In this document: piece by piece, positions 352 through 59,959 of the stretch
How the letters are laid out: the number at the start of each line of letters is the position of its first letter
How positions within the stretch are numbered: position 1 is the stretch's first letter
Source: a virus
Virus record (IMG/VR): IMGVR_UViG_3300048818_000149
Coordinates: 1 to 60,064 of that record
Reading direction: 5' to 3' (one strand)
DNA: 60,064 nt
Made by a program: the position numbers and the translations under genes
The notes under the pieces: generated by a model
Told to the model about the DNA's origin: nothing
The model's database searches: none
What the model saw: only the letters and a program-made list of their open reading frames with translations

Positions 352-1779
352 TTACCTCATCCAGCCCGAAGAGCTATCAGAACGGCTACCGAACGCACCG
401 GGAACGAGGGCGTTCAGGGTGCCCAGCATGGTACTTCTCGGTCGGGCAATCTTGCAGACTGCTCCGACAACTTTCATGCCACAGCCCACAGCGAAGTCAT
501 TGAACGCGCTGGCGGCGTGAGAGTGCTCATCATGCTTGGGCTTGTCCGCAGTCTGCAGAATGAGCCCCGTCCGCGGATCAGTCTTGCGCACTTCATACTG
601 AAAATGCTTGAGCGCATGCAGACCCTCGTGGCAGCGCTTCTCGTCAAACCAGCAGCGTGGAAAGATCGTGCGCCCAGCGTTGATCTTGTCCAGATGGCTC
701 AGGCCAGAAACCACTGTGGTCACGTAGCCTCCGCCCTTGATTTGCTCCTCAATGCTCATCTTCGTCCCCAACGTCTTGGCCTTGGCGTCTGGGGGCAGCC
801 AGATACGAGAGTACAAGTATTGTCTCTGCTGCATAACCTTCAAGTAGTGGTCAATATGCTTCAGGCGATTTTGGTAAAAGTCAATAAAGTGATACTCGAA
901 GCCGACGCGCTGGACGAACCACATACTGGTATCGTCCCCTCGCCCCAAGTCGAAAGAGACCTCGACCGGCACAGTGCGGTCATATGGCACGCTCGTAATG
1001 CGATCTTGGATGAACGCCTCGCGTAGCTCATCGGCGAAGATAGCTCCTTCGAGCGTCTTGCGCGTATGGCCTTCCCACACATGCAAGTAGCCGTCCAGGT
1101 CTCTGCGCTTCAGTTCCTCAATTTCTTGGCGTACTTCCTCGCTGAGCCAGGGGTTATCTCGCCAGGTGGCCTTGACGACAAATGCGCGCGGGTATTCCTT
1201 GCAGACCCAGCCGCCAGGCACTTCGCTCTCAGTGGTCTTGACTTTCTCCAGACCCTCGGGTGAGATGACGAAGCGCTGATAGACTTCGTCATCCTCCTGA
1301 TCTGGATTGAATGTGAACCAGATCTCGCTCTCTTCGGCGCGAATTGTTGGGATCAGAATCTCTAGCGAGTAGCGCGTCAGCTTGTCGGCCTCTTCGAGCC
1401 AGCACTTCGTAACGCCCTCGTAGGACTTGATCTTGGTAATATTATGCCTAATACCCTCGAAGGAGAATTCAGTCCCCCTAGCCTGCCCTAGCCCGTAGAT
1501 GCCTTGTTGTTGAACATCATAGAGATAATTCATCCCCATTCGAGTTATCTGGTCTCCAAGCAACTTATGCACAGAGTCCTTTATGCTGGCCTGAAGCTCG
1601 CGGGCACAGAGTATGCGCTCGCGGCCATTGAGGCCCTGAATCAGTAGGGCACGTGCTACGCCCCAGGAACGGCCAGCAGATCGACCGCCATATAGCACTT
1701 TGAAGCGTTTTGGCTTGAACAAGCACTGAAGCGCCTCGGGGAAGGCAGGGCTTATGCTGGCCGTTGCGACTTCGGGCAC
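352..1779 (-). CDS. terL: Terminase large subunit (PBSX/Terminase_3-like)
   Basis: 475 aa. Walker-A-like KVLYGGRSAGRSWGVA near the N-terminus, WLEEAD Walker-B-like motif, nuclease-half-like C-terminus. Sits immediately upstream of the portal gene. GTG start with no obvious SD. Confidence 0.88.
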   Translation of the reverse strand: MPEVATASISPAFPEALQCLFKPKRFKVLYGGRSAGRSWGVARALLIQGLNGRERILCARELQASIKDSVHKLLGDQITRMGMNYLYDVQQQGIYGLGQARGTEFSFEGIRHNITKIKSYEGVTKCWLEEADKLTRYSLEILIPTIRAEESEIWFTFNPDQEDDEVYQRFVISPEGLEKVKTTESEVPGGWVCKEYPRAFVVKATWRDNPWLSEEVRQEIEELKRRDLDGYLHVWEGHTRKTLEGAIFADELREAFIQDRITSVPYDRTVPVEVSFDLGRGDDTSMWFVQRVGFEYHFIDFYQNRLKHIDHYLKVMQQRQYLYSRIWLPPDAKAKTLGTKMSIEEQIKGGGYVTTVVSGLSHLDKINAGRTIFPRCWFDEKRCHEGLHALKHFQYEVRKTDPRTGLILQTADKPKHDEHSHAASAFNDFAVGCGMKVVGAVCKIARPRSTMLGTLNALVPGAFGSRSDSSSGWMR

Positions 1780-7191: not shown

Positions 7192-7355
7192 TGTAAGCTC
7201 TCCTTGGGCTCCAGGCCCTCAATTCTGCGTGCAAGCACCAGATAGAAGCTCTGCATGTCCTTACTGGCGCGCTCCCAGTGAGCGTCCAGCCCGCAACGTG
7301 AACGAATCTGACTGCGTAGCTCTTTCGCCGTGGCCAGTAAGTCTTCCTCGCGCAT
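7188..7355 (-). CDS. Small hypothetical protein, 55 aa (below cutoff)
   Basis: Hand translation MREEDLLATAKELRSQIRSRCGLDAHWERASKDMQSFYLVLARRIEGLEPKESLQ. TAATG junction upstream and GTGA junction downstream. Confidence 0.4.
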   Translation of the reverse strand: MREEDLLATAKELRSQIRSRCGLDAHWERASKDMQSFYLVLARRIEGLEPKESLQ

Positions 7356-7633
7356 TATTTCGCCTTAGGCTCTGCTGGCTTCGGCGCATTCGCGGCCTTC
7401 AGATCGTCCAGCTCCTTCTTTGTGCTGGCCAGTTGGCTCTGCGTCAGCGCCAGTTGTGCTTTCGCCTGAGCCACTTCGTCCAGCGCGTTGTTGCGCTGTT
7501 GCTGCAGAGTCTGAATGGCCGCGCTGATGAACGCCGGATCGGGCGCGGGCTGGGGTACGCCAGCAGGCATCTGGGCCAGAGCAGCGCCAGCAGTCAGTAA
7601 CGAGAATAACACCGCTACAGTGAAGTTACGCAT
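7355..7633 (-). CDS. Secreted/anchored periplasmic coiled-coil protein (spanin-like candidate)
   Basis: Signal/anchor MRNFTVAVLFSLLTAGAALAQ followed by a heptad-like Q/A/L-rich helix and a Pro/Lys tail. Confidence 0.55.
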   Translation of the reverse strand: MRNFTVAVLFSLLTAGAALAQMPAGVPQPAPDPAFISAAIQTLQQQRNNALDEVAQAKAQLALTQSQLASTKKELDDLKAANAPKPAEPKAK

Positions 7634-8270
7634 GATCTTTCTTCTCCTCAGTTATGGTTAACACTTCAGCAACTTCGCCCTCGATGACTGCTCCATTGCG
7701 CGCTGGCACAAAGTTAATGTTGACGTTCAGGCCAGCAGTCTGGCCCGCGCCCAGTCTCGGATCGCCCTTGGCGGGCGCGGCAGAACGGTCCATTGTGCTT
7801 TCCACGATCTGGCGCAGTTCGTTATTCGTGAACTTATCCGGCTGGTCCTCTAGCCTCTCCTGCAGAACATCCATGGCTGTTCCGCCGAGAGTGACCAGTC
7901 GCGTGTAGGCGTCAAACTTAATTTGCTCTTGCTGTTCAGCGTAGTAGACCAGCAGTTCCTTGAACGCCGGGTCCACGCGGAGCGTTCGGATGCTCGTCAC
8001 GCTTCTGCCAGTTATCATACTGGCATCGAGATCGTTTATCCCGCTGGCCAGCAGCTGGGCCAACTGCTGGTGACCCGTGCGCAGTGTGCTGAGTGAGCGT
8101 TCGGGCGCTGAGATCTGCCAGTTCTTCTCACGCAGTTCTTGGGCGAGCAGCGGCAGGTCTCTGGGCTCGATGTTGCGAACGACTTCGCACGGCTCGACCG
8201 GCAACGTCATCTTCGCCAGAGCGACTTGCTCTAGTTGCGCCAGCGTAGTCTCTTGCGCCCGTCCGCTCAT
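7626..8270 (-). CDS. Hypothetical protein, 214 aa (possible HTH; weak small-terminase candidate)
   Basis: Open frame. The segment ITGRSVTSIRTLRVDPAFKELL looks HTH-like. It lies about 6 kb from terL, so the role is uncertain. Confidence 0.55.
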   Translation of the reverse strand: MSGRAQETTLAQLEQVALAKMTLPVEPCEVVRNIEPRDLPLLAQELREKNWQISAPERSLSTLRTGHQQLAQLLASGINDLDASMITGRSVTSIRTLRVDPAFKELLVYYAEQQEQIKFDAYTRLVTLGGTAMDVLQERLEDQPDKFTNNELRQIVESTMDRSAAPAKGDPRLGAGQTAGLNVNINFVPARNGAVIEGEVAEVLTITEEKKDHA

Positions 8271-8641
8271 CAGTAGTTGCCCCAGGCGCTGCGCGTTGTG
8301 GGCACAAAGGGCTTGGGGACTACCTCTAGGGTGACGTTGCAGAGCCCGCTGCAGCCAATGCGCTTGGCGGGCGCTAGAGTCAGATCAATCTCGCGGCCCT
8401 TCACGTATGGGCCTCGGTCATTGATGCGGACTACTACGCTGCGCTCGCCGTGTGTCACGCGAACGTAAGTGCCGAAGGGCAGCGTCTTGTGCGCAGCGGT
8501 GTTGGCGTTGCAGTCCAGTCTGCCCCCGCTGGCCACTGGCTTCCCGCAGTAGCCGTCAGAGCCGCCATAGACGCTGGCCACAGCGGCCTGTCCGCAAGTG
8601 ACGTGGCTGACTGCGAGACAGAAGACCAGAGCGCGGAACAT
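8270..8641 (-). CDS. RlpA-like double-psi beta-barrel lytic transglycosylase with signal peptide
   Basis: ASVYGG...TAAHKTLPFGTYVRVTHGERSVVVRINDRGPYVKGREIDLTLAPAKRIG matches the RlpA/DPBB signature. N-terminus MFRALVFCLAVSHVTCGQA. Confidence 0.75.
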   Translation of the reverse strand: MFRALVFCLAVSHVTCGQAAVASVYGGSDGYCGKPVASGGRLDCNANTAAHKTLPFGTYVRVTHGERSVVVRINDRGPYVKGREIDLTLAPAKRIGCSGLCNVTLEVVPKPFVPTTRSAWGNY

Positions 8642-8805
8642 CAGATGTCATGCCTTTCTGGTTGCCAAGTCCAGCGAGAGATCGGAAAGGCGAGATTGGC
8701 CATCCAGCGAAATGGATACGGGCCGCGTACCATAAACCAGCCAGGCATATCTAAGCGTGCCCACCAGCCACCTTTGCCCTCGAATACTGTGCGAGCTGCT
8801 GGCAT
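8641..8805 (-). CDS. Trp-rich small protein, 54 aa (below cutoff)
   Basis: Hand translation MPAARTVFEGKGGWWARLDMPGWFMVRGPYPFRWMANLAFPISRWTWQPERHDI. TGATG coupling to the RlpA-like gene. Confidence 0.35.
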   Translation of the reverse strand: MPAARTVFEGKGGWWARLDMPGWFMVRGPYPFRWMANLAFPISRWTWQPERHDI

Positions 8806-8809
8806 GTTC

Positions 8810-9283
8810 TCAGTCTCGAAAAGCTATGACGCCGCGCAGAGAGACGCAGCGCGTTCTGACTGCATGGCCATCGTTGCCGCTGTGCAGCATGATGTGGCCC
8901 GCAGGGCACTCTCCAGCGGCGATTTCCCCAACGTGATGCGGCCAGACGACGACGGCGCCGACTACTGGCCCGCTGGGATGCCCGTAGCTGATCCAGTTGC
9001 GCGCGAGATTATAGCTAGCGTCGCTAATGCCTTTGACTTGCCGCATGTACCAGCCGCACCAGCGACTGGACCTACCCTCGCCCACTGTGACGTGGGGGCG
9101 TTCGGCGTTCTGGGACCAACGTGGGCCAAAGGCCGTGCTATGCGGCCACTCGGGCGTCTTGGGCACACTTGACCAGTGAATGCGATGCCCGTGATGTCTG
9201 TGCGCGTAGTGGGCACTCGCTGGGCTAGCGAGGCCCGTGAGTGCCAGAAGAACAACTAGCGTGCTTAGTGCTTTCGCGTGCAT
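8810..9283 (-). CDS. Secreted NlpC/P60-CHAP-like peptidase (TIGR02594-like)
   Basis: Signal peptide MHAKALSTLVVLLALTGLASPASA. RWCGWYMRQ (Cys), VVVWPHHVGEI (His) and SGNDGHAV match the family pattern from memory. Confidence 0.6.
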   Translation of the reverse strand: MHAKALSTLVVLLALTGLASPASAHYAHRHHGHRIHWSSVPKTPEWPHSTAFGPRWSQNAERPHVTVGEGRSSRWCGWYMRQVKGISDASYNLARNWISYGHPSGPVVGAVVVWPHHVGEIAAGECPAGHIMLHSGNDGHAVRTRCVSLRGVIAFRD

Positions 9284-11146: not shown

Positions 11147-11548
11147 ATGCCCATCACCGCGCAGAGACTACACGCGCTGCTTATCGAGCACGAAGATACG
11201 CTCGAACGCGCCAAGGCCCTCCACAACGTCATTCTCGGAATTATCAAAGGCCCCCAAGAGATCGAGGAACAACTTAGCGCCGAGAGCAAATTAGACGACA
11301 TTAAGGCCACGGTCAGCGTTCTGCTCAAGCTACCCCACCACGTCCATTTGCTAGAGCGGACAATGTATAACCGCAACGCCAAGCGCAACGCACGGGCCAA
11401 AATCAAGCAGGCTCACAAGCGCGAAATGCTCGGCACGAGCAAGAGACAAGCGCCGGGTTCGCCCGATCAGCTAGAGGCCCAAGTGCTAGAGGAACTAGAC
11501 TATGCACAAGCCACCACATATATCCCCTTGAAACATGTACCTAAATAG
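11147..11548 (+). CDS. Hypothetical protein, 133 aa
   Basis: Start at ATG 11147 (MPITAQRL). Weak resemblance to 16259..16561 (MPITQARM...). Confidence 0.55.
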   Translation: MPITAQRLHALLIEHEDTLERAKALHNVILGIIKGPQEIEEQLSAESKLDDIKATVSVLLKLPHHVHLLERTMYNRNAKRNARAKIKQAHKREMLGTSKRQAPGSPDQLEAQVLEELDYAQATTYIPLKHVPK

Positions 11549-11596
11549 ACCATGTTTCGCATGTGCCCCTACTAGCCCTAGGATCGGGCTAAGGAG

Positions 11597-12508
11597 ATGC
11601 ACTTGCTCTCGCGAAGAACCATTTTTGAATTGGTCGGCATCGTCGTTGGCTTCGGCAGCTTCTTGCTGCGCTACGCCAATAAGATTGCCAACGCGCTTCA
11701 GTTTATCGACCTGCCTGACGACGTTAAACAGGCGCTGATAGCAATGTCACAAATCCCGACATTGCTTGCGTGGCTGGCCTTCGTCGTAGGGCTACTTTGC
11801 CTTGGCTACCTGATACATGATTCTCATGGGAATAAGGTCAAGGCTCTTGCGACCAAGAGGGTGAAATTGCTGATTCTCGCCGCAACTTGTTCCATCGTTT
11901 GTCTCGTTGGCGCCGCCGCGAGCATCACTTGGTCTTATAGACTGTGGACAGTGGAACAGACTACCCCGACCGCCGCCACTGATGTTGCGCCAAATCCCGC
12001 GGCATCCTCAAACGCCGAGCAACGATCGGCTCAGGCCCCAGCGCAGAAGCCTGCACCTCTGCCTGTCCCCAAGCCAAAGGAAGAAAATTTAATTGGGAGC
12101 GCGACGTTGTTATTCAATGCTGACGACGACAGCTTGACCGTTCTAAAGTATGAAGGAATTAAGTCTGTGGCAGTTGAGCCCATCAATAATTTGACGGTTA
12201 TGCCGCAGTCTTACGTGGTGACTTTCATTTTCTATCCGCATCAAGGGCCATTTGATGTGCGGATTGATGGAGATGTTGGAGTATTCGGGCGGCAAGTTGG
12301 ATTATTCTATAGCGTAAGTCAAAACGATGATCGGTTTGTTTCTGTAAACGTCACAAAATCTTATATGATTCCGAGAACCCATCAGACCTTTTTTAGATTT
12401 TACCGACAAAACCAAGCTGCGCCTAGCGGAAATTCTACGGGCGACATCAAAGACAATCATGGTATCATTACGCAAGGTCAAACAGGCTCTAATAAGCTAG
12501 ACAAATGA
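11597..12508 (+). CDS. Three-TM membrane protein with Pro-rich linker and beta-rich C-domain (moron-like)
   Basis: Hydrophobic segments IFELVGIVVGFGSFLL, LLAWLAFVVGLLCLGYLI, LLILAATCSIVCLVGAAA. The 3' half is visibly AT-rich relative to the genome. Confidence 0.7.
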   Translation: MHLLSRRTIFELVGIVVGFGSFLLRYANKIANALQFIDLPDDVKQALIAMSQIPTLLAWLAFVVGLLCLGYLIHDSHGNKVKALATKRVKLLILAATCSIVCLVGAAASITWSYRLWTVEQTTPTAATDVAPNPAASSNAEQRSAQAPAQKPAPLPVPKPKEENLIGSATLLFNADDDSLTVLKYEGIKSVAVEPINNLTVMPQSYVVTFIFYPHQGPFDVRIDGDVGVFGRQVGLFYSVSQNDDRFVSVNVTKSYMIPRTHQTFFRFYRQNQAAPSGNSTGDIKDNHGIITQGQTGSNKLDK

Positions 12509-42569: not shown

Positions 42570-43981
42570 TCTTTGGTCTCTCGCGCGTCGAGGTAACTGT
42601 TCAGCGTATTGGCCCAATCATTCCGCACATTGGCCATGTCGTAGATGCCTAGTTTCTGCTGCTGCATTCGACCGTAGAAATGTGCGCGCTCCATGTCAGT
42701 CACATTGGCCATCTCGCGCATGGCGGCCATGATTTTGCTAATGGCTCCAGGCGTCATGTCAATATTCGGCGAGCCAGTTTCGAGCGTCTTATTCCACTCT
42801 GTCTGCGTCACGCGGCCACCACCAGCTTTAATGAGCTGACTGGCCATCTGCGAGCCGATGCCGAAGAACAATTTCTGCGCCGCCTGAACGCTATCAATGC
42901 TGCCGTTGGCCAGCGCATCTTGAATGTCCTGCGATACTCCCATGCCGCTGGCAATTCGGCCCAGTTTCTCCCGTATGCTCGCCGCGCCGTTCGGATCGAA
43001 GTTCTTCAGCAAGCCTTGAGCCTGCTTCATCTGGAGCAGCAGCGCCTGGGCCTGGCTCTCTCGCGCATCGATGTCTTGCTTATAGTCCGCAGTGTCTTTG
43101 TAGATCGCCTGCTGCATCGGGCCAGCAGCGCCCAAGCGCGGAGCAGCCGGAGCACTATCAGGCGCCAGAGCGTTCTGGCTCGGCGCAGGCTGAGCGGGCG
43201 ATAGCGCGTTGCCAGCATCTGGTGCTGGAGGTCCTGCATTCGCGGCAGCAGCCCCAGCAGTCGGCCCCGCAGACATCGCACCAGCCGTGCCACTCAGTGC
43301 CGCTGGCGTCGCCGTCGCCCGCGCAGGATTCATCCAGGCGCCGCTGGTCGAGCCATCTGCATTGACGATAGCATTTGGATCATAATTGCTCGTCAGGGCG
43401 CTCAGCGCACTAGAGCCCCGCTGCATCGCAATGGCGTGAGGCAACAGCACCTGATTTCTGAAGTCCGCATCCTTCAGGCCAGCATATTTCGGATCGCTCA
43501 TAAAAGCAATGGTTTCTTTGTACTTGCTGGGCTCAATGGCCCCAATGCTCATTGCTTGAGAGAAATACGGCGTCATGTCGCTCATGTCTTTAACGCCTGG
43601 ATCTTTCGCCGCCGCGCCCCAGATGCCAGCCATCATATCCATACGCTTGCCGGTGGCCTCAAGTTTTGCATTAGTGGTCTCGGCGTCGAGCAACTTCTTC
43701 TGAGCAATGTTGTTCAGAAACTCTGGAGCCATGAAGCTAGTCTCTGGATGAGTAGCGACTAGCGTAGCGGCTTTGTCCCAGTCCACTTGGCCCGACTGTG
43801 GATCAGTCGCCTGCTGCATCAGCGGTCCCATCGCTTGTCGTGCGCGATAGGTCTGCTGGAACAACTGGTTCTGATTGAGCTGATTCTGAATGCCCGCGAA
43901 CTGGCCCACCATAGCCAGCGGGTTCTGCTGCTGTTGGCCGATGCCAGCCACAATGCCTGGATTAATCGTATCGACGGGCAT
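42566..43981 (-). CDS. Q/N/A-rich internal virion (ejection) protein, 471 aa
   Basis: The composition and the position between hub and SLT protein are typical of podovirus ejection proteins. Confidence 0.6.
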   Translation of the reverse strand: MPVDTINPGIVAGIGQQQQNPLAMVGQFAGIQNQLNQNQLFQQTYRARQAMGPLMQQATDPQSGQVDWDKAATLVATHPETSFMAPEFLNNIAQKKLLDAETTNAKLEATGKRMDMMAGIWGAAAKDPGVKDMSDMTPYFSQAMSIGAIEPSKYKETIAFMSDPKYAGLKDADFRNQVLLPHAIAMQRGSSALSALTSNYDPNAIVNADGSTSGAWMNPARATATPAALSGTAGAMSAGPTAGAAAANAGPPAPDAGNALSPAQPAPSQNALAPDSAPAAPRLGAAGPMQQAIYKDTADYKQDIDARESQAQALLLQMKQAQGLLKNFDPNGAASIREKLGRIASGMGVSQDIQDALANGSIDSVQAAQKLFFGIGSQMASQLIKAGGGRVTQTEWNKTLETGSPNIDMTPGAISKIMAAMREMANVTDMERAHFYGRMQQQKLGIYDMANVRNDWANTLNSYLDARETKE

Positions 43982-43984
43982 CTT

Positions 43985-44371
43985 TTAGCCTCCGAAGCCA
44001 GTTGGCTGGCCACTGGTTAGCGAATTGTTCTGCAGACCAGTCATTAGTGAACTCCAGAGGCCTTGCATGCTCTGTGGCGCGCCAGTGGGACTGATCTGGT
44101 TCTGCGGACTCGGCACAGCGTTGGGATCAGCAAAGCCCGTTCCCGCGCCCGTTACTGGTGTTGCACCGCCCACGACGCCGCTCGGAGCCTGCACGCTGCC
44201 GCCAGTGGGCTGTAGAGCATTTTGAGTCCCAGTGGGCTGTGCGCTTTGCGCGAGCGCGTTCTGCCCATTCTGGCCGAACATGGAGGTCAGCGGACTTTGG
44301 CCGCCAGCGCCACCTTGGCCGAAGAGCTGCATCAAGTAGGGCAGGAGCATTTGCAGCAGTTGGGGGTTCAC
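43985..44371 (-). CDS. Low-complexity Q/G-rich protein, 128 aa
   Basis: GTG start with GGAG upstream. Low-complexity composition. Confidence 0.5.
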   Translation of the reverse strand: MNPQLLQMLLPYLMQLFGQGGAGGQSPLTSMFGQNGQNALAQSAQPTGTQNALQPTGGSVQAPSGVVGGATPVTGAGTGFADPNAVPSPQNQISPTGAPQSMQGLWSSLMTGLQNNSLTSGQPTGFGG

Positions 44372-44387
44372 TTATAACTCCGAAGTT

Positions 44388-44413
44388 GGGAGAGCAGAGA
44401 TTGCCGCTCTCCC
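44388..44413 (-). promoter_or_regulatory. Hairpin just downstream of the mini-coat gene
   Basis: gggagagc (44388-44395) / gctctccc (44406-44413), 10-nt loop. Confidence 0.5.
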
Positions 44414-44424
44414 ATTGTCACTAA

Positions 44425-45015
44425 CTAGGACGTAACTTCCCATTGTCTGTGGCCAGCAGCAGCGAAGATGACATCCATTCGAGAAACTAGCTCATCACTA
44501 CCTGGAATGTATGCCTCTATGGTCCGAACAGCTACTTCACCGAAGTAATGCTGCTCTGCCTGTATTACTCCAGCGCTTGGTATAACCAGCTCAGCGAATA
44601 CCAACGCCAGTCTCGTCTCGAACGGCGAAGCGCGTTCCTCAGCAAGAGCAATGGCGATGTTATCTGCAAGCAACTCGACCTGGACCTGCCCAAAATCATA
44701 GTCTGGGTGCATTGATATATTTCTTTGCAGAAACTTAGTTCCAAACTCTGATTCAATGCCCATCTTCGCTCCTTCTTTCGAGAAGCGCCGATCCATCTGG
44801 CCGACAAGGATTCCGCGCTCTTTGATCGCGAGATAAAGCATCTTGGCAAGTGATTTCTTTACCCAGATGGTGCCACCAAGTCTTCGGACTGATCCGACTT
44901 CCGAAGGATGCACTGGATGCTCTAGTATGCTTCGAGAATCAGCCTGCACTGTTTTAGCTGCTATCGGTATCATTGTTGCTGCAGCTCCTCCAAGTAACAC
45001 ATCTCGTCTCTTCAT
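44425..45015 (-). CDS. Truncated coat-protein paralog with twin-arginine (Tat-type) signal peptide
   Basis: MKRRDVLLGGAAATMIPIAAKTVQA-D. C-terminus GVIQAEQHYFGEVAVRTIEAYIPGSDELVSRMDVIFA versus coat GVEESAREQFDGIAMRMLTAYVPGTDQLITRLDVLYG (14/37 identical, ungapped). GAGGAG RBS. Lower GC. Confidence 0.7.
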   Translation of the reverse strand: MKRRDVLLGGAAATMIPIAAKTVQADSRSILEHPVHPSEVGSVRRLGGTIWVKKSLAKMLYLAIKERGILVGQMDRRFSKEGAKMGIESEFGTKFLQRNISMHPDYDFGQVQVELLADNIAIALAEERASPFETRLALVFAELVIPSAGVIQAEQHYFGEVAVRTIEAYIPGSDELVSRMDVIFAAAGHRQWEVTS

Positions 45016-45034
45016 CTTAGTCTCCTCGTGTTGT

Positions 45035-45057
45035 AGATAGCTCGGAATGAGCTATCT
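45035..45057 (-). promoter_or_regulatory. Hairpin just upstream of the mini-coat gene
   Basis: agatagctc (45035-45043) / gagctatct (45049-45057), 5-nt loop. Confidence 0.5.
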
Positions 45058-45067
45058 GAATAAACTT

Positions 45068-45814
45068 CTACCCCCAGGGGGAAGACTGATATGGAATTGG
45101 CGTATCGCCTGCTCCAGGCCAGCCGCCAGAGGGAATGGCATTATTGACCGTCGCAGCGGGATTATTTCTGGCCTGAATGAGCTGCTGCAGCAAGTTATAT
45201 TGCAACGCGCTGTTCACGCCACCAGTAACCGAGTTGCTGACGCCCGCACCGCCAGCCGCCAGCGCGTTGCCCTCTCCGACCATGCTAGAGCCTATGCCCT
45301 GGCCAGTCTGAATGGCCGCGCCCGTGAGCGCGTTCGCGGCATTCGCCCCCGTCTGCACGGGCTGATAGAGCAGACTGGCAATCTGTTGGTTCTGGGCCAG
45401 ATAGTTCTGCAGCTGTTGATTGTAAGTGCTCTGGGCGAGCCCGGTCGTATAGTCACTCGCACCCTTCATTGCTGCGCCAGAAGAGCCCAGGCCCTGGGCG
45501 GCGTAGCCATTCTGGACGCCCTTTTGTCCTTGGTTCAGCGTGAATTGATAGCCCGGTGTGCTGGGCAGCGTGGCGGCCGTGAACGGCTGAGTCAGCCCCG
45601 GCAGACTTTGCATGTATTGCTGCAGTGCGTTCTGGCCGGTCTGAATGAACGGATTCTCATAGCCAGAGGCAGTATTGAACATCTGCATCTGGGCATTAAT
45701 GGCATTCTTCTCAGCACTGGCCTGCTGCCCGCTGCCATAGAGGCTCGTGCCAGCGCCCACGAGGCTACTGAGCCCGGTGCCGAGAAGCATAGCTGTACCG
45801 ATACCTATGGGCAT
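45068..45814 (-). CDS. G/Q/N-rich internal virion protein, 248 aa, hydrophobic N-terminus
   Basis: MPIGIGTAMLLGTGLSSLVGAG followed by a Q/N/G-rich body. Ejection-protein-like. Confidence 0.6.
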   Translation of the reverse strand: MPIGIGTAMLLGTGLSSLVGAGTSLYGSGQQASAEKNAINAQMQMFNTASGYENPFIQTGQNALQQYMQSLPGLTQPFTAATLPSTPGYQFTLNQGQKGVQNGYAAQGLGSSGAAMKGASDYTTGLAQSTYNQQLQNYLAQNQQIASLLYQPVQTGANAANALTGAAIQTGQGIGSSMVGEGNALAAGGAGVSNSVTGGVNSALQYNLLQQLIQARNNPAATVNNAIPSGGWPGAGDTPIPYQSSPWG

Positions 45815-46509
45815 TACTGTAGCGCCTCCGGCGCAGCGTTAGTCGCAAGATGCTTGAAGTAGCCCTGACGGCCCAGTTTGAACATCATATGGCGGCATTC
45901 TTTGCCCAGGCCCAGGATTTCGTTCTGCCGCTGTTGGTACAGCGTGGCCAACTGGCGCACGTCGGGATTCAGGTTCTTTTCGGACAGGAACTCCCACCAG
46001 CCGCTGTCGTGCTTATAGGGCAGACAGTGCTCGAAGATTGCCGCGCAGACAGACTCCTGTGCTAGTTCGTGAAAGTCCACCGTCAGCGTCTGCGGCTGCA
46101 ACGCCAGCTTGTCCAGAGCACGCCGCACGTATTCCAACAGGTGACGCAATCTCGGCAGATCAAGCTCCAAGTGGTCCTTCTCCGTGGCCGCCACCAAGCT
46201 CGCAAGTATCTCATCTATTGGCCTCCGGACGACCACAGTGCGCAGACGCGGCTCCGCAGTCAGCAATAACGGCCACGCGGGGGCGGCTAACGTCTCCGCA
46301 GCGCCCATTCCTGGTATGGAGAGCATCGTGAGAACTTCTTGCAACGAGCTGACCTTGGCCGTTGCTTCAAAGTTACAGACGCAGATCCCATACGTCAAGA
46401 ACGCTGAAAGCCACATCGTGCGACTTCTGCCTGCGCTGAAGACCATATACGGCAGCAGCTGAGCATCGCCGCGAAATTTCAGCTGGAGTTCATCTAGCGT
46501 CTCGCTCAT
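45814..46509 (-). CDS. Hypothetical protein, 231 aa, with sulfotransferase-like motifs
   Basis: FSAGRSRTMWLSAFL (5'-PSB-like) and VVVRRPIDEILASL (3'-PB-like). Tentative. Confidence 0.55.
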   Translation of the reverse strand: MSETLDELQLKFRGDAQLLPYMVFSAGRSRTMWLSAFLTYGICVCNFEATAKVSSLQEVLTMLSIPGMGAAETLAAPAWPLLLTAEPRLRTVVVRRPIDEILASLVAATEKDHLELDLPRLRHLLEYVRRALDKLALQPQTLTVDFHELAQESVCAAIFEHCLPYKHDSGWWEFLSEKNLNPDVRQLATLYQQRQNEILGLGKECRHMMFKLGRQGYFKHLATNAAPEALQ

Positions 46510-46814
46510 TGGCCCACTACTTTGCTCAACGCCGCCACTTGGTTAATAAGTGCTTGTATCTGAGTCTGGCTATACGTCACACTTGCTGTGTCGCTATATG
46601 TGCTGCTGACGCTTGAGCTGCGCACGACGAACGTGCCGAAGAGATAACGCCATGCGGGCGTCACGTAGGCCATCATGGCTTGCAGCTTGCCTGTTATGGG
46701 CTTTCCGGCGGAGTCGTAGAGGCCCATCACGTCCTCTTCGCCGAAGCTCGCAATGGGCGCGCTTGTATTGGGCGTCTGATTCGGTAGAGTATTCGCTGAT
46801 CCGGGAGCGGCCAT
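46506..46814 (-). CDS. Hypothetical protein, 102 aa
   Basis: Open frame with ATGA coupling. Confidence 0.55.
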   Translation of the reverse strand: MAAPGSANTLPNQTPNTSAPIASFGEEDVMGLYDSAGKPITGKLQAMMAYVTPAWRYLFGTFVVRSSSVSSTYSDTASVTYSQTQIQALINQVAALSKVVGQ

Positions 46815-46815
46815 T

Positions 46816-49293: not shown

Positions 49294-50487
49294 TCACCAA
49301 GAATATCCGGTTAGAATAACAGACGTGCTGGGCGATGTCCCCGTAGTCTGGAAAAACCAATAGAGCGTTTGTGCAGTAGGCATTCTCGCATTGGAGAAAT
49401 TGCCGATATATGTCAACGCGGCTGCCGAGGTTGGTGCGGCTAGAAAAACCGGATATTGTCGGCCTGCCCCACCTGCGGCATCCGTAGTAATAGTCATCTG
49501 GATGACGGCGCCTAAAGTAACAGTAGTTCCAGTTGTCATTAACCCTACACCGGAGACTGAAACCGCATTGGGCGGAACGCCAAGACAACTGCATGTACCG
49601 GGCACAAGCGAAAGTGACGTATAGGGCGAATTCGATCCCGCACTTGAAGTAACTGCGGCAGAGTTTGAATAAGCAATAGTGCGCCCAAATACGTAGGCAA
49701 TAACTAATGCGGGCGTCGAGTTTGTAGGCCACACCGCAAGTAATGCCGAAGCTGTGTACCCAGCAGGCATGTGTGCGCCAGGATAGATCGTGCCGCAGGA
49801 TGACGCGCAGCTATAGCCCAGAATCGACGTGCCGGATGTGCCGTAAATGGCATAGATGGCGACAAAGCCGCTGGTCGGCGTTGTGCCAGTATCCATTCCA
49901 CCGGCACCAGTCGTAGAGGTATCAATCTGTTTTGAATAACTTGGCAGATTATACGCAGTTCCGTTCAATGCCGTCGCTACGACGATACTATCGGCAGTAA
50001 AAGTTACGGCTGTCCCCGCTGTTGCAAGAGATGCCGCTACATTGATGGCACTACCAATGGCCGGATTTACAAAACGCGAGTCATTGCCCTGAGCCGCCGT
50101 ATTTGCTGCCGTGCCGTAAGTGACCGAGATTGCGCCAGAAGAATTAGTAATCGTCGTACCGTCTGGCTTAACGGGGCCGAGGACAGATGATGTTCCCGCA
50201 GTCAAATTCGCCGCAGAACCAGATGCTGGTGTACCAAGAGCACCGCCGTTAACGACGAATGCGCCTGCTGTTCCAACATTAACACCTAAAGCTGTAGCTG
50301 CGCCGGTGCCAGGAGTGACACCAGCAACTTTTGCAACGCCGGGATTTGGGTAAGTACCAGATAAATCACCGCCTGCCGCGCCCCCAGGCGTGCCACCATT
50401 CGCGGTGCCTGTCGGTAGCACGATCTGGGCACACACAGGCCCAGTCAGCGCAGCGAGAACAGCCAGCGTTGCAAGAAATTTCTTCAT
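49294..50487 (-). CDS. Tail-fiber-like protein with Sec-type signal peptide
   Basis: MKKFLATLAVLAALTGPVCAQ. The fiber motifs GGDLSGTYPNPGVAKV, LGPVKPDGTTITNSSGAISV and GNDSRF are present. Confidence 0.75.
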   Translation of the reverse strand: MKKFLATLAVLAALTGPVCAQIVLPTGTANGGTPGGAAGGDLSGTYPNPGVAKVAGVTPGTGAATALGVNVGTAGAFVVNGGALGTPASGSAANLTAGTSSVLGPVKPDGTTITNSSGAISVTYGTAANTAAQGNDSRFVNPAIGSAINVAASLATAGTAVTFTADSIVVATALNGTAYNLPSYSKQIDTSTTGAGGMDTGTTPTSGFVAIYAIYGTSGTSILGYSCASSCGTIYPGAHMPAGYTASALLAVWPTNSTPALVIAYVFGRTIAYSNSAAVTSSAGSNSPYTSLSLVPGTCSCLGVPPNAVSVSGVGLMTTGTTVTLGAVIQMTITTDAAGGAGRQYPVFLAAPTSAAALTYIGNFSNARMPTAQTLYWFFQTTGTSPSTSVILTGYSW

Positions 50488-53211: not shown

Positions 53212-53241
53212 CTGGGAGAGGCCGAGGAAAACCTCTCCCAG
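53212..53241 (-). terminator. 10-bp GC hairpin immediately after the coat gene (attenuator candidate)
   Basis: ctgggagagg (53212-53221) / cctctcccag (53232-53241). No clear T-run. Confidence 0.4.
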
Positions 53242-53294: not shown

Positions 53295-54578
53295 TTAGAC
53301 GATGTCGGCGACGGTACAGGCCCACTCCGGGCGAACCCAGAGATAGCCGTACAGAACGTCAAGTCGAGTGATCAGCTGGTCAGTGCCCGGAACGTATGCA
53401 GTCAGCATACGCATCGCAATGCCATCGAATTGCTCACGAGCGGACTCCTCAACGCCCTTGGTCGGCATGATCAGATCGGCTGTCGCCATCGTCACTGCTT
53501 CCGGCGCAAAGACGAAGTTCTTGCGATACGTCGTGCTCGCCGGGTTCACAATGTTGATCTGAGCTGCGTTGATCGGACTGTTATCCACAGTCTGATATTG
53601 CTGCTGAGTGCTGCCAGCTCCGAACGGGATGAGCGCCGGATAGATGCTCAGCGTAGTAGTCGTACCGGCGGTGAACGCCGCAGTCACAACGAACTGCTTG
53701 AGTTGCCCGATACTGGTCTTGAAGACCTTGTTGACCGCGTGGACGTCAGTGGTGAGCGCTCCCGTGCCGAACGTCACGATGTCGCCCACGACGAGCGTGC
53801 CAGAGCCGTTGGTGTTGACAGTGATGTTCAGCCCGGTCTGGTTCGCGCCGTTCACAGTAGTCGCGCCGTTGTACGTGCCTGCGACGTGCTGGAGAACCGT
53901 CTGGTCCATATACCAGTCGAAGCCGAGCGTATCACTGGCCATCTTGCCAGACTTATATTGCTCGCTGATCTTCGGAGCCGGATTGAAGAGACCAGCCAGA
54001 GACGCCACTGTGCGGCTCTGCGTGACCGGATCGAGAATGGCCTTCCAGGCATCGGTCGGCGCAGAATTCTGATGCAAGAATGCGCCAGCGGTCAGCCAGG
54101 TCTGTGCCACAGGCGAAGAAGTCAGTGTCGTCCAGGCACCGTCTGCAGCCTGCGAACCATTCTGCACATAGTTACAGATGCCCGCGCCGTTGGTGCCGCC
54201 GGAGTCCACGCCGGACATGACATCCGCGGCGACTGCGCCCGCGAGGTTGTTGACCATCGGAGCGAGAACACGTCGGCTGAAGTCATCCAGCGACATGGTG
54301 CGATCGACGGAATTGAAGCTAACGTCCACGCCCTTCTGGGTAGCCAGCACGAGGGTCGTGCTCTGCTCCGCAGTATCTTGGACCTGCGCGGCGGGGCCAG
54401 AACGAACGGTGAAGTCGTTCGGCAGTCTAATTCGCAGCGAAGAGCCAATCTTCGCGCCAGTCTTGGCGAAGTTGTCGTCGTATTGCATATCGACGTGCTG
54501 GATGAACGCGTTGCTGTTCTTCCAGAGACGAACTGCCTCTCGGGTAATCATATTGATAGTAAGAAGTGAGTTGGCCAT
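53295..54578 (-). CDS. Major capsid protein, P22 coat (gp5) family
   Basis: 427 aa. N-terminus NSLLTINMITREA, then DDFSRRVLAPMVNNLA, and C-terminus LDVLYGYLWVRPEW. Follows the scaffold gene. Confidence 0.88.
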   Translation of the reverse strand: MANSLLTINMITREAVRLWKNSNAFIQHVDMQYDDNFAKTGAKIGSSLRIRLPNDFTVRSGPAAQVQDTAEQSTTLVLATQKGVDVSFNSVDRTMSLDDFSRRVLAPMVNNLAGAVAADVMSGVDSGGTNGAGICNYVQNGSQAADGAWTTLTSSPVAQTWLTAGAFLHQNSAPTDAWKAILDPVTQSRTVASLAGLFNPAPKISEQYKSGKMASDTLGFDWYMDQTVLQHVAGTYNGATTVNGANQTGLNITVNTNGSGTLVVGDIVTFGTGALTTDVHAVNKVFKTSIGQLKQFVVTAAFTAGTTTTLSIYPALIPFGAGSTQQQYQTVDNSPINAAQINIVNPASTTYRKNFVFAPEAVTMATADLIMPTKGVEESAREQFDGIAMRMLTAYVPGTDQLITRLDVLYGYLWVRPEWACTVADIV

Positions 54579-57655: not shown

Positions 57656-59959
57656 CTACGCTACGGGCCTAAAGTTCTTGGCCTGGGCAAAGTCTCGCAC
57701 GTACCACTGGCCATTCTCGGCCTGCCGCGCGCCAGAGAGCGGTGGCCTCGCGCGTGTGGCAGCCTCGGGCAGCCCGGCAGGCACAGACTGGTCCAGCACG
57801 TCAGTCGTCGTGGCCTCAGCGGGATTAACTGTCGCCGTAAGTGACTCCGCGATGGCAGCCTCGACGATGGGTCTCAGCGTGTCCGGCGTAATCTCAGCCT
57901 CGCCCTCCTTCGCGGCCTCGATCAGCACAGCGAGCCTCTTCGTCAGAGCCTCAAAGATCGCGACTTCGTTCTTCTCCTCTTTGCCCCTCAGCTTAATGCG
58001 CAGAGTGGTCTGATCCTCTAGGCTCTTGCTGAAGAGATTCTGCAAGTTCTGAACTTGCTGCATCAGAGCTTGCTCGGTGGCCGACGGGCCTTCTCCGAGC
58101 GCATGAGGCGGCACCATGCGGCGAAGCCGTTCGGCAGCTTCTTCTGCATGCGGGAAGTCTGCGGCGCGGAATAGTATGTCGCCCAGTATGCTCGCCAGCT
58201 GCGGGCTCTGGGTAAGAACCAGCTTAAAGGCCTCGAAAGCCTCTTCACGCTGAGTGGCATAATTCGGCCCGATGTCAGCCTGAACTTCATACTTGCCCAC
58301 GTTCGGCGCCAGAACGTGGATGACACTCTGCTGATCCTCCATCATGACCTTCTGATACGCCTGCTTCGCCTGCGGGTCAATCGCGACGTTCATGGTAGTT
58401 CCGTCGTCAGCAAGGATCTGCATAAGGCGCTGCGTATCGTAGATATAGGGAAAGAGGTCCAGAACGATCTTCCCAATGTGCCGAATTGCAATGGCCAGAT
58501 TGTCTATGAAGTGGTAAGTCGCCGTGCTGGCTTGTCTCGTGCGCTCACCGATCTGCTTGGGCGTTCGCGGAATGCCGCCCTGCATACTCGCAGCGTACTG
58601 CCCACTGACCATAAGCAGGTCTTGCAGTGAACTCTGCATCTGCGTCGCATAGATTGGGGCGGCAGCGGGGGGCTGTATCCGCTGAGGAGGCGGGATAACG
58701 CTACCATCTTCCCGGAGGGACTTATACGGGAGGATACTGGTGTTAATTCGATTAGCATCGTTCCAGTAGGTTTCAAGCTCTTCCACTGCTTCAACAGGGG
58801 CAATCCACGGAGTCTTCGTCTGAAGACCCATAAATTCCACTGCCGAGCTAGCTGCATAGTTATACATGCGTTGGGCATCGAGCATGCTCCTCGTGTGGCT
58901 CTTACAGTCCCAAGTGCCCTCGATAATAGTCTCCTCTCCCCAGACGGGCACGATGGGAATATACTGTCCGGGCCAATCTTTCTCCTCAACGACTTGCCAG
59001 CCGATAATGAGCTTCCACTCGACCTGCTTGCGAATTAGTTCGCGCGACTGGACCAGGCCCTCTTCCTCATCTTGCCGGATCTGCTTCAGCAGGACAGCGC
59101 TACGGCCAGTCTTGACTTTCTCCAGTAGCGACTTCGCAATAAAGCCCCCTTGGAAGTCCTTCTGGCCAGCGTAGCCCGCAGGCAACGCATAGAGCACATC
59201 CTTGCGCTCTACGACGCGCCAATATTCCGCCACTCGAACGTAGTCATCATTGACCCAGCCTACAGTGCCCGCACCCATCGGGCTAGCAGTGGCTAGGTCT
59301 TTGTACTCAGCGTACTGGGGGTCCTTGTCGAACTCCTTACGCTCAATGTCCTCGAAGACAAAGGCGAACTTCATATCGCTGCGATCTGGCTCCTTCGCAT
59401 CGGGGTCGAGGTAGACGTTCAGCGGGTCCGCTTGCCGCTTAATGTAGATGTCTTGGTCGAAGTTCTTCTCGTTCGAGTAGTCCGTGGCCACGCGTATGTA
59501 GCCCCAGCCAGCGTTGACCTGAAAGTTCGTCGCGTGGTCGTAGGCCGCGCTGGCGTTGCTGATGTACTCGATGTGCTTCACAAGGGCGTTAAGAACTTTC
59601 GCAGAGTCAACTGAAGCTCCATCTGCCACCGGAAGAATTTTAATACCAGGTTTATTTTGCTTCGCGTCATTAACAATCTGTAAGTTGTGTTGCCGCGCCC
59701 CGTTGAGGGTGAGACTGGGACGATCATCCACCTCTCTTGTGCGGCGTAGGCCGTTGGGCCACTGGTAGCCGTTGTACGCATCCGCATGGGCAAACTTGTA
59801 ATCATCCAGAAACCTCGCTCGGGCAACTTTCTCGCGACTTACACAACGCTCGAAGCGATCCATGCCCTCGCGAACGGCATCGCTGACGCCAGCAGGAGCA
59901 TCGCCGGAGCCAAACGCTGGCGGGTTCGCATCGCGTGGGGGAGAACCGCGTTCAGACAC
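57656..59959 (-). CDS. Portal protein (P22 gp1-like)
   Basis: 767 aa. FLDDYKFAHADAYNGYQW...RPSLTLN...GWGYIRVATDY parallels the P22 portal N-terminal pattern. GTG 59959 lies inside the terminal overlap. Alternative start at Met33. Confidence 0.88.
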   Translation of the reverse strand: MSERGSPPRDANPPAFGSGDAPAGVSDAVREGMDRFERCVSREKVARARFLDDYKFAHADAYNGYQWPNGLRRTREVDDRPSLTLNGARQHNLQIVNDAKQNKPGIKILPVADGASVDSAKVLNALVKHIEYISNASAAYDHATNFQVNAGWGYIRVATDYSNEKNFDQDIYIKRQADPLNVYLDPDAKEPDRSDMKFAFVFEDIERKEFDKDPQYAEYKDLATASPMGAGTVGWVNDDYVRVAEYWRVVERKDVLYALPAGYAGQKDFQGGFIAKSLLEKVKTGRSAVLLKQIRQDEEEGLVQSRELIRKQVEWKLIIGWQVVEEKDWPGQYIPIVPVWGEETIIEGTWDCKSHTRSMLDAQRMYNYAASSAVEFMGLQTKTPWIAPVEAVEELETYWNDANRINTSILPYKSLREDGSVIPPPQRIQPPAAAPIYATQMQSSLQDLLMVSGQYAASMQGGIPRTPKQIGERTRQASTATYHFIDNLAIAIRHIGKIVLDLFPYIYDTQRLMQILADDGTTMNVAIDPQAKQAYQKVMMEDQQSVIHVLAPNVGKYEVQADIGPNYATQREEAFEAFKLVLTQSPQLASILGDILFRAADFPHAEEAAERLRRMVPPHALGEGPSATEQALMQQVQNLQNLFSKSLEDQTTLRIKLRGKEEKNEVAIFEALTKRLAVLIEAAKEGEAEITPDTLRPIVEAAIAESLTATVNPAEATTTDVLDQSVPAGLPEAATRARPPLSGARQAENGQWYVRDFAQAKNFRPVA

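Follow-up and report, generated by a model that had tools for sequence, protein, structure and literature searches.

A coat-related gene in the ejection cluster

We analyzed a 60,064-nucleotide viral sequence, positions 1 to 60,064 of IMG/VR record IMGVR_UViG_3300048818_000149 (hereafter, the window), with a focus on a minus-strand gene whose 196-residue product is related to the major coat protein of the same phage. We refer to this product as the mini-coat. Together with its relatives it forms a family of five proteins: P0001 (window), P0002 (locus L001), P0003 (locus L002), P0005, and P0006. A preliminary description, prepared from the nucleotide sequence alone, had portrayed the gene as a truncated coat paralog that carries a twin-arginine signal peptide and is inserted among ejection genes. 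The open reading frame is intact, its product starts with MKRRDVLLGGAAATMIPIAAKTVQA, and an identical copy of P0001 is present in the protein collection. Coordinates of this gene and related features are listed in Table 1.

The genes of the late strand run in the order of an 823-residue head-closure-like protein, proteins of 102 and 231 residues, the 248-residue "DNA ejection" protein, the mini-coat, a Q/G-rich protein of 128 residues, and proteins of 471, 645, and 842 residues. In terms of a P22-style ejection cluster, the mini-coat therefore occupies a place between the gp7-like and gp20-like genes. The gp16-like protein of the cluster is encoded at 40680..42617. As had been described, the gene has its own ribosome-binding site and is AT-richer than its neighbors. 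Its G+C content is 0.49 and its G+C content at third codon positions (GC3) is 0.45, compared with a GC3 of 0.65-0.72 for the neighboring late genes, and in 4/4 genomes the mini-coat gene lies 4-8 GC points below the surrounding locus. The syntenic ortholog P0002, located on the 61.7-kb phage contig of L001, is 62% identical to P0001. The Nei-Gojobori ratio of nonsynonymous to synonymous substitution rates (dN/dS) between the two orthologs is 0.19 overall, 0.14-0.16 in the folded domain, and 0.47 in the linker (residues 26-55), and these ratios are approximate because dS is saturated at ~1.7. To judge from this comparison, the mini-coat gene is a working gene under purifying selection.

Table 1. 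Features of the mini-coat locus and of related loci in the window
Feature	Position	Strand	Details
Mini-coat pre-protein, coding sequence (P0001)	44425..45015	-	196 residues; stop codon 44425-44427; from the open reading frame list; dN/dS 0.19 versus L001 ortholog
Predicted twin-arginine-type signal peptide	44941..45015	-	MKRRDVLLGGAAATMIPIAAKTVQA; residues 1-25; predicted cut after VQA; M1, R3, R4, and L7 invariant in 5/5 members
Poorly conserved linker aligned to coat N-arm	44860..44940	-	Residues 26-52; predicted disordered; predicted local distance difference test (pLDDT) <50 over residues 1-52
Predicted compact alpha/beta domain (coat F-loop and P-domain)	44428..44859	-	Residues 53-196; strand, spine helix, C-terminal strands; collinear to coat 2-122 and 357-422
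FSKEGAKMG motif	44758..44784	-	Residues 78-86; pairs with coat FAKTGAKIG (coat 37-45, F-loop in P22 numbering); G82 and G86 family-invariant
Segment homologous to coat C-terminal P-domain strands	44428..44610	-	Residues 136-196, coat 362-422; BLASTP, tblastn, hhalign
Ribosome-binding site GAGGAG	45022..45027	-	6 nucleotides before ATG; inside a 16-nucleotide block (ACAACACGAGGAGACT) identical in L001
Upstream hairpin	45035..45057	-	45035-45043/45049-45057; perfect 9-bp stem, loop AUUCC; between gp7-like stop and mini-coat ribosome-binding site
Downstream hairpin	44387..44414	-	44387-44395/44406-44414; perfect 9-bp stem (11 bp in RNA fold); begins 10 nucleotides past stop codon
Upstream neighbor, ejection-type protein, gp7-like position	45068..45814	-	248 residues; phrog_598 "DNA ejection", E = 1e-19; 63% identical to 281-residue protein of L005
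Q/G/P/T-rich low-complexity gene	43985..44371	-	128 residues; accompanies mini-coat in window and L001; absent here in sister phage
471-residue protein, gp20-like position	42566..43981	-	Ortholog directly after gp7-like gene in sister phage
Major coat protein, P22 type, parent-like homolog of mini-coat	53295..54578	-	PF11651, E = 1e-29, 103.9 bits; phrog_283, E = 1.5e-53; >7900 homologs
Hairpin just 3' of coat gene	53213..53240	-	Stem GGGAGAG..CTCTCCC, same class as mini-coat 3' hairpin; free energy -27.5 kcal/mol
Coat-piece mosaic open reading frame	35645..36529	+	294 residues; no signal peptide

The coat protein of the window pairs with the PF11651 model nearly residue for residue (coat 1-421 with model 1-419), and its profile aligns with the solved coats of CUS-3, Sf6, and P22 with offsets of a few residues. 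Residues 136-196 of the mini-coat match coat residues 362-422 with 33% identity and 67% positives (BLASTP, E = 6e-12). A tblastn search with the mini-coat against all six frames of the window recovered the coat gene (E = 3e-9; reciprocal E = 6e-10), and alignment of the five-member family with 35 coats using hhalign gave a probability of 97% over 47 columns (E = 7.9e-11). Other members also match the coat individually, namely P0002 (E = 2e-11), P0003 against the coat of its own phage (E = 3e-7), and P0005 (E = 1e-7). Seven family-invariant residues (L143, P146, R164, Y169, D174, R179, and D181) pair with invariant coat residues (L369, P372, R390, Y395, D400, R405, and D407), and a GAK-M/I-G motif is likewise invariant in both the mini-coat family and the coats. 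The invariants common to the mini-coat and P22-type coats are therefore GAK-I/M-G, L-x-x-P, and R..Y....D....R.D. The C-terminal alignment proposed in the preliminary description, whose quoted coat peptides are found in the coat open reading frame, is thus far beyond chance, and its reading of the gene as a truncated coat paralog is supported by P-domain homology that is significant in pairwise comparison, in profile-profile comparison, and in four members individually.

The N-terminal match is weaker and collinear. Residues 34-99 of P0002 match coat residues 2-60 (E = 3e-5), and the N-terminal part alone, aligned using hhalign, pairs mini-coat residues ~34-129 with coat residues 2-122 (E = 6.5e-4, 28% probability). 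The resemblance of FSKEGAKMG to coat FAKTGAKIG, which had been pointed out earlier, is weak when taken alone (BLASTP, E = 0.01) and forms part of this collinear match. By sequence, the coat origin of the C-terminal third of the mini-coat is firmly established, and that of the N-terminal two thirds is plausible but less certain. When the five members were scanned against Pfam with hmmscan (E ≤ 10), P0001 matched only TAT_signal, and nothing coat-related was returned for P0002, P0003, P0005, or P0006. Because the PF11651 hidden Markov model gives no match and the fold is incomplete, we consider the mini-coat homologous to PF11651 coats yet not a member of that family.

The domain limits of P22 gp5 are 2-30 for the N-arm, 34-50 for the F-loop, 51-78 for the E-loop, 31-33, 79-127, and 358-416 for the P-domain, 128-221, 346-357, and 417-430 for the A-domain, and 222-345 for the I-domain (PMC9965877). 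Projected onto these limits, the mini-coat retains a degenerate version of the N-arm, then the F-loop, then a strand and the spine helix of the P-domain (coat ~76-122), and finally the strands at the C-terminal end of that domain (coat 357-422). The alignment skips from coat residue ~122 to ~357, at the P/A boundaries of P22 gp5 (127/128 and 357/358). Compared with the P22-type coats (PF11651; P22 gp5, Sf6 gp5, and CUS-3), the mini-coat is homologous in the C-terminal strands of the P-domain, with weaker similarity in the N-arm, F-loop, and spine helix, whereas it lacks the A-domain, the I-domain, and most of the E-loop (~235 residues) and carries a predicted signal peptide. As had been proposed, the mini-coat is too small to adopt a complete HK97 fold, its folded part comprising only ~140 residues. 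Because the E-loop, A-domain, and I-domain are lacking, the mini-coat cannot form capsomers as coats do.

Modeling with AlphaFold2 from the five-sequence alignment predicted a compact, confident domain at residues 53-190 (pLDDT 76-94; predicted template-modeling score 0.66) composed of helices (H) and strands (E) in the order H56-66, E96-102, H110-127, E137-141, E150-158, E161-169, and E178-186. The AlphaFold model of the coat contains elements of the same order and kind (H5-38, E81-89, H97-125, E387-396, and E401-410); this full-coat model is poor (pLDDT 50) and was used solely for secondary-structure order. Foldseek found no match in the PDB at E ≤ 0.001, and its local matches of 52-55 residues at E ~2 were to Sf6 gp5 and to predicted "Major capsid protein Gp5" entries. 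The top PDB matches, lambda gpU and thioesterases, were rejected as fold relatives (template-modeling score <0.25), and searching PDB sequences with the profile of the family returned noise alone (E ≥ 0.06). The best predicted-structure neighbor was a 116-residue uncharacterized phage protein (BFVD A0A6J5NY35, E = 1.9e-4). Similarity to P22-type coats is significant at the profile level and only local at the structural level. From the alignments and the model, we read the mini-coat as a P-domain-only derivative of a P22-type coat.

Capsid protein paralogs are known as special virion subunits, such as the T4 vertex protein gp24 relative to gp23, which have a complete HK97 fold and serve to build the capsid. 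The mini-coat is likewise a second coat-derived gene in its genome, but it retains about one third of the fold, has a predicted export signal, appears to be dispensable, and varies in position between sister phages.

The count of three coat-related genes in this phage also held. The third, the mosaic open reading frame on the plus strand, contains coat-like segments that include an N-arm piece (E = 1e-9) and a C-terminal piece (E = 3e-7). Its coat pieces are out of order: residues 7-31 resemble coat 385-409, residues 86-134 fuse a piece like coat 26-58 (IGSQLRVRLPENYQV) to a piece like coat 392-419 (IDRVDVLYGRTYVRPEW), and the C-terminus (residues 254-291) reproduces the coat N-arm at 50% identity, the ITREA stretch included. 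We equate this stretch with the portion of the P22 N-arm that binds scaffold, and the 294-residue product might bind scaffold or coat. The L001 homolog (11294..12133, minus strand) is 60% identical, lacks the N-arm copy, and contains a tandem RLPNDFRV duplication.

The N-terminal leader

All five members of the family start with M-x-R-R-[DE]-[VL]-L, even though their pairwise identity is only ~30%. The individual motifs (KRRDVLL, KRRDLLL, LRRDLLR, NRREVLI, and NRREVLI) agree with the consensus of the twin-arginine translocation (Tat) pathway, (S/T)-R-R-x-F-L-K or Z-R-R-x-hydrophobic-hydrophobic. In every member, 15-18 uncharged Gly/Ala/Thr-rich residues follow and lead to a small-x-small site (VQA|D, AAA|K, VKA|D, AIA|T, and STA|S). 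A c-region lysine precedes the cleavage site in four of the five members, and the lysine of P0002 lies at +1, after the site. The members have no lipobox Cys and have the features expected of candidate signal peptidase I substrates. Leaders of this kind are scarce in the window, where a crude Tat-like pattern picked out 3 distinct sites among 1481 candidate start sites.

Compared with established Tat signal peptides (PF10518, TIGR01409), the mini-coat leader shares the R-R-x-hydrophobic-L motif at residues 3-7, a moderately hydrophobic Gly/Ala/Thr-rich h-region, the c-region lysine, and an AxA-type site, whereas its n-region is very short, with two residues before RR, and it falls below the curated thresholds. 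The earlier assignment of a Tat leader therefore stands at the level of the motif, the h-region, and the cleavage site, but not at the level of curated profiles. The form and conservation of the leader make a signal peptide well supported. Its Tat nature is likely but not demonstrated. We consider export of the mini-coat to the periplasm probable on these features, and use of the Tat rather than the Sec route somewhat favored.

The coat spine-helix sequence FSRRVLAPMVNNLAGAVAA, at window position 54296 on the minus strand inside the coat gene, superficially fits the Tat-like pattern, which we judged to be coincidental. Derivation of the leader as a copy of this spine helix was rejected, as the two do not align and the mini-coat has its own spine-helix equivalent at residues 105-129.

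Genomic contexts and flanking hairpins

A close comparison is provided by a 60.3-kb sister phage (loci L002 and L005), whose coat, P0009, is 94% identical to that of the window. The ejection locus of the sister phage has no mini-coat: only 5 nucleotides separate its gp7-like gene (63% identical) from the ortholog of the window's 471-residue gene, which comes next. Because these flanking genes are 5 nucleotides apart in the sister phage, the window and L001 carry a two-gene insertion of 1086 bp consisting of the mini-coat and the 128-residue gene, and insertion among the ejection genes, as first described, is borne out. The 128-residue protein is 48% identical in L001, its gene has a phage-typical GC content, and it has no family match.

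The sister phage carries its mini-coat, P0003, at a lysis-side locus exactly between a 213-residue gene and a gene for a secreted coiled-coil protein of 91 residues. The 213-residue gene is 87% identical to window 7626..8270, which in the window adjoins the coiled-coil gene, just upstream of the endolysin. A third context is represented by L003 and L004, in which the mini-coat follows a primase and lies near a Wzy-like gene. P0003 is 33% identical to P0001, compared with 87-94% for flanking core proteins, and we therefore rejected the simple displacement of one ortholog between the sister phages. This divergence may fit a role in an arms race or may simply reflect independent acquisition. From these comparisons, the mini-coat is a dispensable, mobile accessory gene.

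Two further observations concern the lysis-side locus. The conserved coiled-coil protein of 91-92 residues has a Sec-type signal peptide (window 7355..7633, minus strand; L002 10567..10842, plus strand), is encoded just upstream of a 55-residue gene and the Rv2525c-like endolysin, and may be a lysis accessory or spanin-like protein. Upstream of the L002 mini-coat copy is a cluster of lipoprotein and signal-peptide genes (8010..9050, plus strand) that includes an RlpA-like DPBB_1 protein and a 163-residue protein with an LWSC lipobox.

The family is extremely rare: 5.8 billion protein clusters and 1.8 billion representatives yielded five members. A phmmer search that covered all 1.8 billion representatives added only P0003 and P0005, and another phmmer match, P0004, was repetitive and eukaryote-like and was discarded as spurious. 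Neither megablast of window positions 42000-47000 nor tblastn of the mini-coat yielded a match among 50,697 phage records, and no further relatives came from the IMG/VR viral contigs, GTDB genome contigs, or JGI metagenome contigs that were scanned. The search for bacterial homologs that had been recommended at the outset thus found none in GTDB contigs. Searches of PHROGs, NCBIfam, and Pfam assigned no family and revealed no similarity to known exclusion, lysis, spanin, or receptor-blocking families.

The mini-coat gene of the window is flanked by two hairpins. These had been reported with stems of 9 and 8 bp; both are present, and both in fact have perfect 9-bp stems. RNA folding gave a free energy of -13 kcal/mol (z = -8.2) for the upstream hairpin and -20.4 kcal/mol (z = -4.6) for the downstream hairpin, and the 60-kb window contains six such perfect hairpins compared with 2.35 expected by chance. 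In L001, the upstream hairpin retains the AUUCC loop and its stem shows three double compensatory changes and one wobble, while the downstream hairpin shows two double compensatory changes. Both hairpins appear, from this covariation, to be selectively maintained. They were rejected as intrinsic terminators, as neither is followed by a U-tract, and look like RNA-level elements (attenuation, processing, or stabilization) rather than a promoter-terminator pair. The hairpins 3' of the mini-coat and of the coat are near-identical in stem and loop length (10-nucleotide loop; GGGAGAG-N12-CTCTCCC), a pattern with two matches in the window and 0.01 expected. This likeness may reflect either a shared class of element or copying of the mini-coat along with the coat 3' flank.

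Morons are independently acquired accessory phage genes, as described for HK97/HK022-type phages. The mini-coat resembles morons in its presence or absence in close relatives, its lower GC content, its insertion between otherwise adjacent genes, and its flanking stem-loops. It differs from them in that no promoter or U-tract terminator was detected, in that its phage has no detected lysogeny genes, and in that its origin is a phage structural gene rather than a host-like one. The "classic moron layout" of the preliminary description was therefore overstated. The presence/absence pattern, the GC content, and the hairpins agree with it, whereas the gene lies in the late operon, with which it is probably transcribed, has no promoter or terminator of its own that we could find, and belongs to a genome in which no integrase was found.

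The window as a whole is a ~60-kb podophage-type genome that encodes a large terminase (352..1779), the P22-type coat, a P22-type portal (57656..59959), a family A DNA polymerase, a primase-type protein, and the Rv2525c-like endolysin. The late operon exits at the low end of the window (terminase) and re-enters at the high end (portal). Because the operon spans both ends and the window is as long as its source contig, the window is probably a complete, circularly permuted genome. Among cultured phages, Pseudomonas phage PAE2 has the most similar coat, although the two coats are only 53% identical. No integrase was identified among the open reading frames of the window that were scanned, which revealed no lysogeny genes. 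A tail-fibre-like gene of 397 residues (49294..50487, minus strand; phrog_11518) has a GC3 of 0.45, as low as that of the mini-coat and compared with 0.65-0.72 for neighboring genes, and this low GC3 suggests horizontal exchange of a host-range module.

Possible functions of the mini-coat

The best explanation of these data as a whole, which we hold tentatively and regard as somewhat short of probable, is that the mini-coat is an exported, coat-derived accessory protein and a possible anti-entry mimic. The pre-protein would consist of three parts: a twin-arginine-type signal peptide of 25 residues, a degenerate, disordered N-arm remnant of ~27 residues, and a compact alpha/beta F-loop and P-domain of ~140 residues. 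It would be made late in infection, fold in the cytoplasm, be exported in folded form, most likely via Tat, and be released into the periplasm of the infected cell as a protein of ~170 residues. There, it would keep the partner-binding surface of the capsid P-domain and could act as an envelope-level mimic that blocks the ejection-protein conduit of superinfecting related phages. Taken by itself, an anti-entry or mimicry role is a genuine though doubtful possibility. The most specific version is rather unlikely; it holds that the Tat-exported P-domain mimics the inner surface of the capsid and, when related phages try to enter, traps their ejection proteins or some other partner that binds the capsid, thereby blocking genome delivery, in a lineage that repeatedly recycles coat pieces, with the mosaic gene at 35645..36529 as another example.

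Of the components of a virion, only the ejection proteins, the needle, and DNA enter the periplasm in the normal course of infection. We lean, with low confidence, toward a periplasmic anti-entry mimic because ejection proteins reach this compartment and because there is a precedent in SieA. P22 SieA acts on the ejection-protein conduit, and its escape mutations map to gp16 and gp20, identifying ejection proteins as exclusion targets (PMC10883804). Like the envelope-level exclusion proteins P22 SieA, T5 Llp, and T4 Imm/Sp, the mini-coat is small, phage-encoded, and predicted to lie outside the cytoplasm. However, it is related to them neither in sequence nor in fold, and the resemblance is in predicted location alone. 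The parts retained by the mini-coat (F-loop, spine helix, and P-domain sheet) face neighboring subunits and the capsid interior in P22 (domain limits from PMC9965877).

Several observations weigh against this explanation. The leaders of P0001 and P0002 scored 13.5 and 10.8 bits against Pfam TAT_signal (PF10518), compared with a gathering threshold of 22.7, the other three members gave no score, and NCBIfam (including TIGR01409) gave no match for any leader. Homology of the N-terminal part to the coat is modest (28% probability, E = 6.5e-4). The predicted fold rests on a model built from 5 sequences, and Foldseek gave local matches of 52-55 residues at E ~2, but no global match to solved capsid proteins. 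Comparative power is low because the family has only five members. A scan of positions 43800-45400 detected no sigma-70-like promoter, other promoter types being outside that scan, and a terminator scan of the same interval found none in or flanking the mini-coat gene, the only site being at 44001-44021 on the plus strand, opposite the genes. A prophage-style exclusion role is not evident because no integrase is shown, and we know of no established contacts between coat and ejection proteins.

The same export signal would suit a protein of the periplasm or envelope that does something else, for example timing or regulating lysis, masking a receptor, or interacting with the cell wall or outer membrane, and for which the coat fold would be a stable scaffold rather than a mimic. 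We regard this as a genuine though doubtful possibility. The L002 copy lies inside a block directly upstream of the endolysin and adjoins a secreted coiled-coil protein, the L003 copy is near the Wzy-like O-antigen gene, and the most similar predicted folds are small uncharacterized phage proteins (such as BFVD A0A6J5NY35) rather than capsids. On the other hand, two genomes carry the mini-coat away from lysis genes, known lysis, spanin, and receptor-blocking families in Pfam, PHROGs, and NCBIfam show no similarity to it, and the residues that it keeps invariant are those that are invariant in coats. Genomic position would instead suggest a virion-internal or ejection-associated protein, in which the leader is a processing or membrane-insertion segment and the P-domain remnant docks to the inner capsid lattice to be packaged and ejected. 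In the window and L001, the gene is located between the gp7-like (phrog_598) and gp20-like genes, is co-inserted with a Q/G-rich protein of a type typical of ejection proteins, and belongs to the late strand, where no separate promoter for it was found. P22 gp7, moreover, loses an N-terminal leader during assembly. This explanation is nevertheless quite unlikely. In two other phages the mini-coat is outside the structural module, and because the sister phage, with its 94%-identical coat, has none at the ejection locus, the mini-coat is not a core part of the virion. The leader also has the canonical tripartite form of a signal peptide with an AxA-type site. In addition, mini-coat arginines align with the invariant R13-E14 of the coat in a stretch that is predicted to be disordered, and are thus opposite a glutamate that in our view is the counterpart of the acidic residues with which the P22 gp5 N-arm binds scaffold.

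If the N-terminus were not an export signal, the mini-coat could be a cytoplasmic coat mimic, acting either as a decoy for capsid-sensing abortive infection or as a poison or modulator of capsid assembly in its own phage or a competitor. The F-loop and P-domain that it retains make inter-subunit contacts in P22 capsids (PMC9965877), and the same genome encodes a second, signal-less protein made of coat pieces (35645..36529). Members that are only ~30% identical nevertheless all keep the RR pair, the hydrophobic stretch, and the cleavage-type site, a pattern that would be difficult to account for if the protein were not exported, and no match to a PADLOC-type or anti-defence family turned up, although none was sought; we consider a cytoplasmic role very unlikely. 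The presence of coat fragments elsewhere in the genome and the very small size of the family would also suit a functionless, decaying remnant of a coat duplication or a recombination scar. However, the low dN/dS (with dS saturated), the intact frames of five divergent members, the conservation of the ribosome-binding site and of hairpins with compensatory changes, and the confidently predicted fold make a remnant extremely improbable.

Our literature search found no described exported capsid fragment, in agreement with the earlier remark that a Tat-exported piece of capsid was unfamiliar from described phages. The preferred explanation, an exported coat-derived protein, implies that a piece of capsid was probably recycled into a secreted protein encoded by a mobile accessory gene. 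Capsid genes are usually regarded as among the most constrained of phage genes. The mini-coat would provide a clean, datable example of the birth of a phage accessory gene from a major capsid gene, in which the coat gene was cut to its P-domain core at boundaries equivalent to those of P22 gp5, given a secretion signal, and made into a mobile cassette found at different sites in sister genomes. If the mini-coat binds what the capsid interior binds, it would offer a handle on the retention and release of ejection proteins in P22-like virions and would represent a new exclusion strategy. A self-folding P-domain would reduce the HK97 fold to a minimal module and, as such, would interest those who engineer P22-type nanocages.

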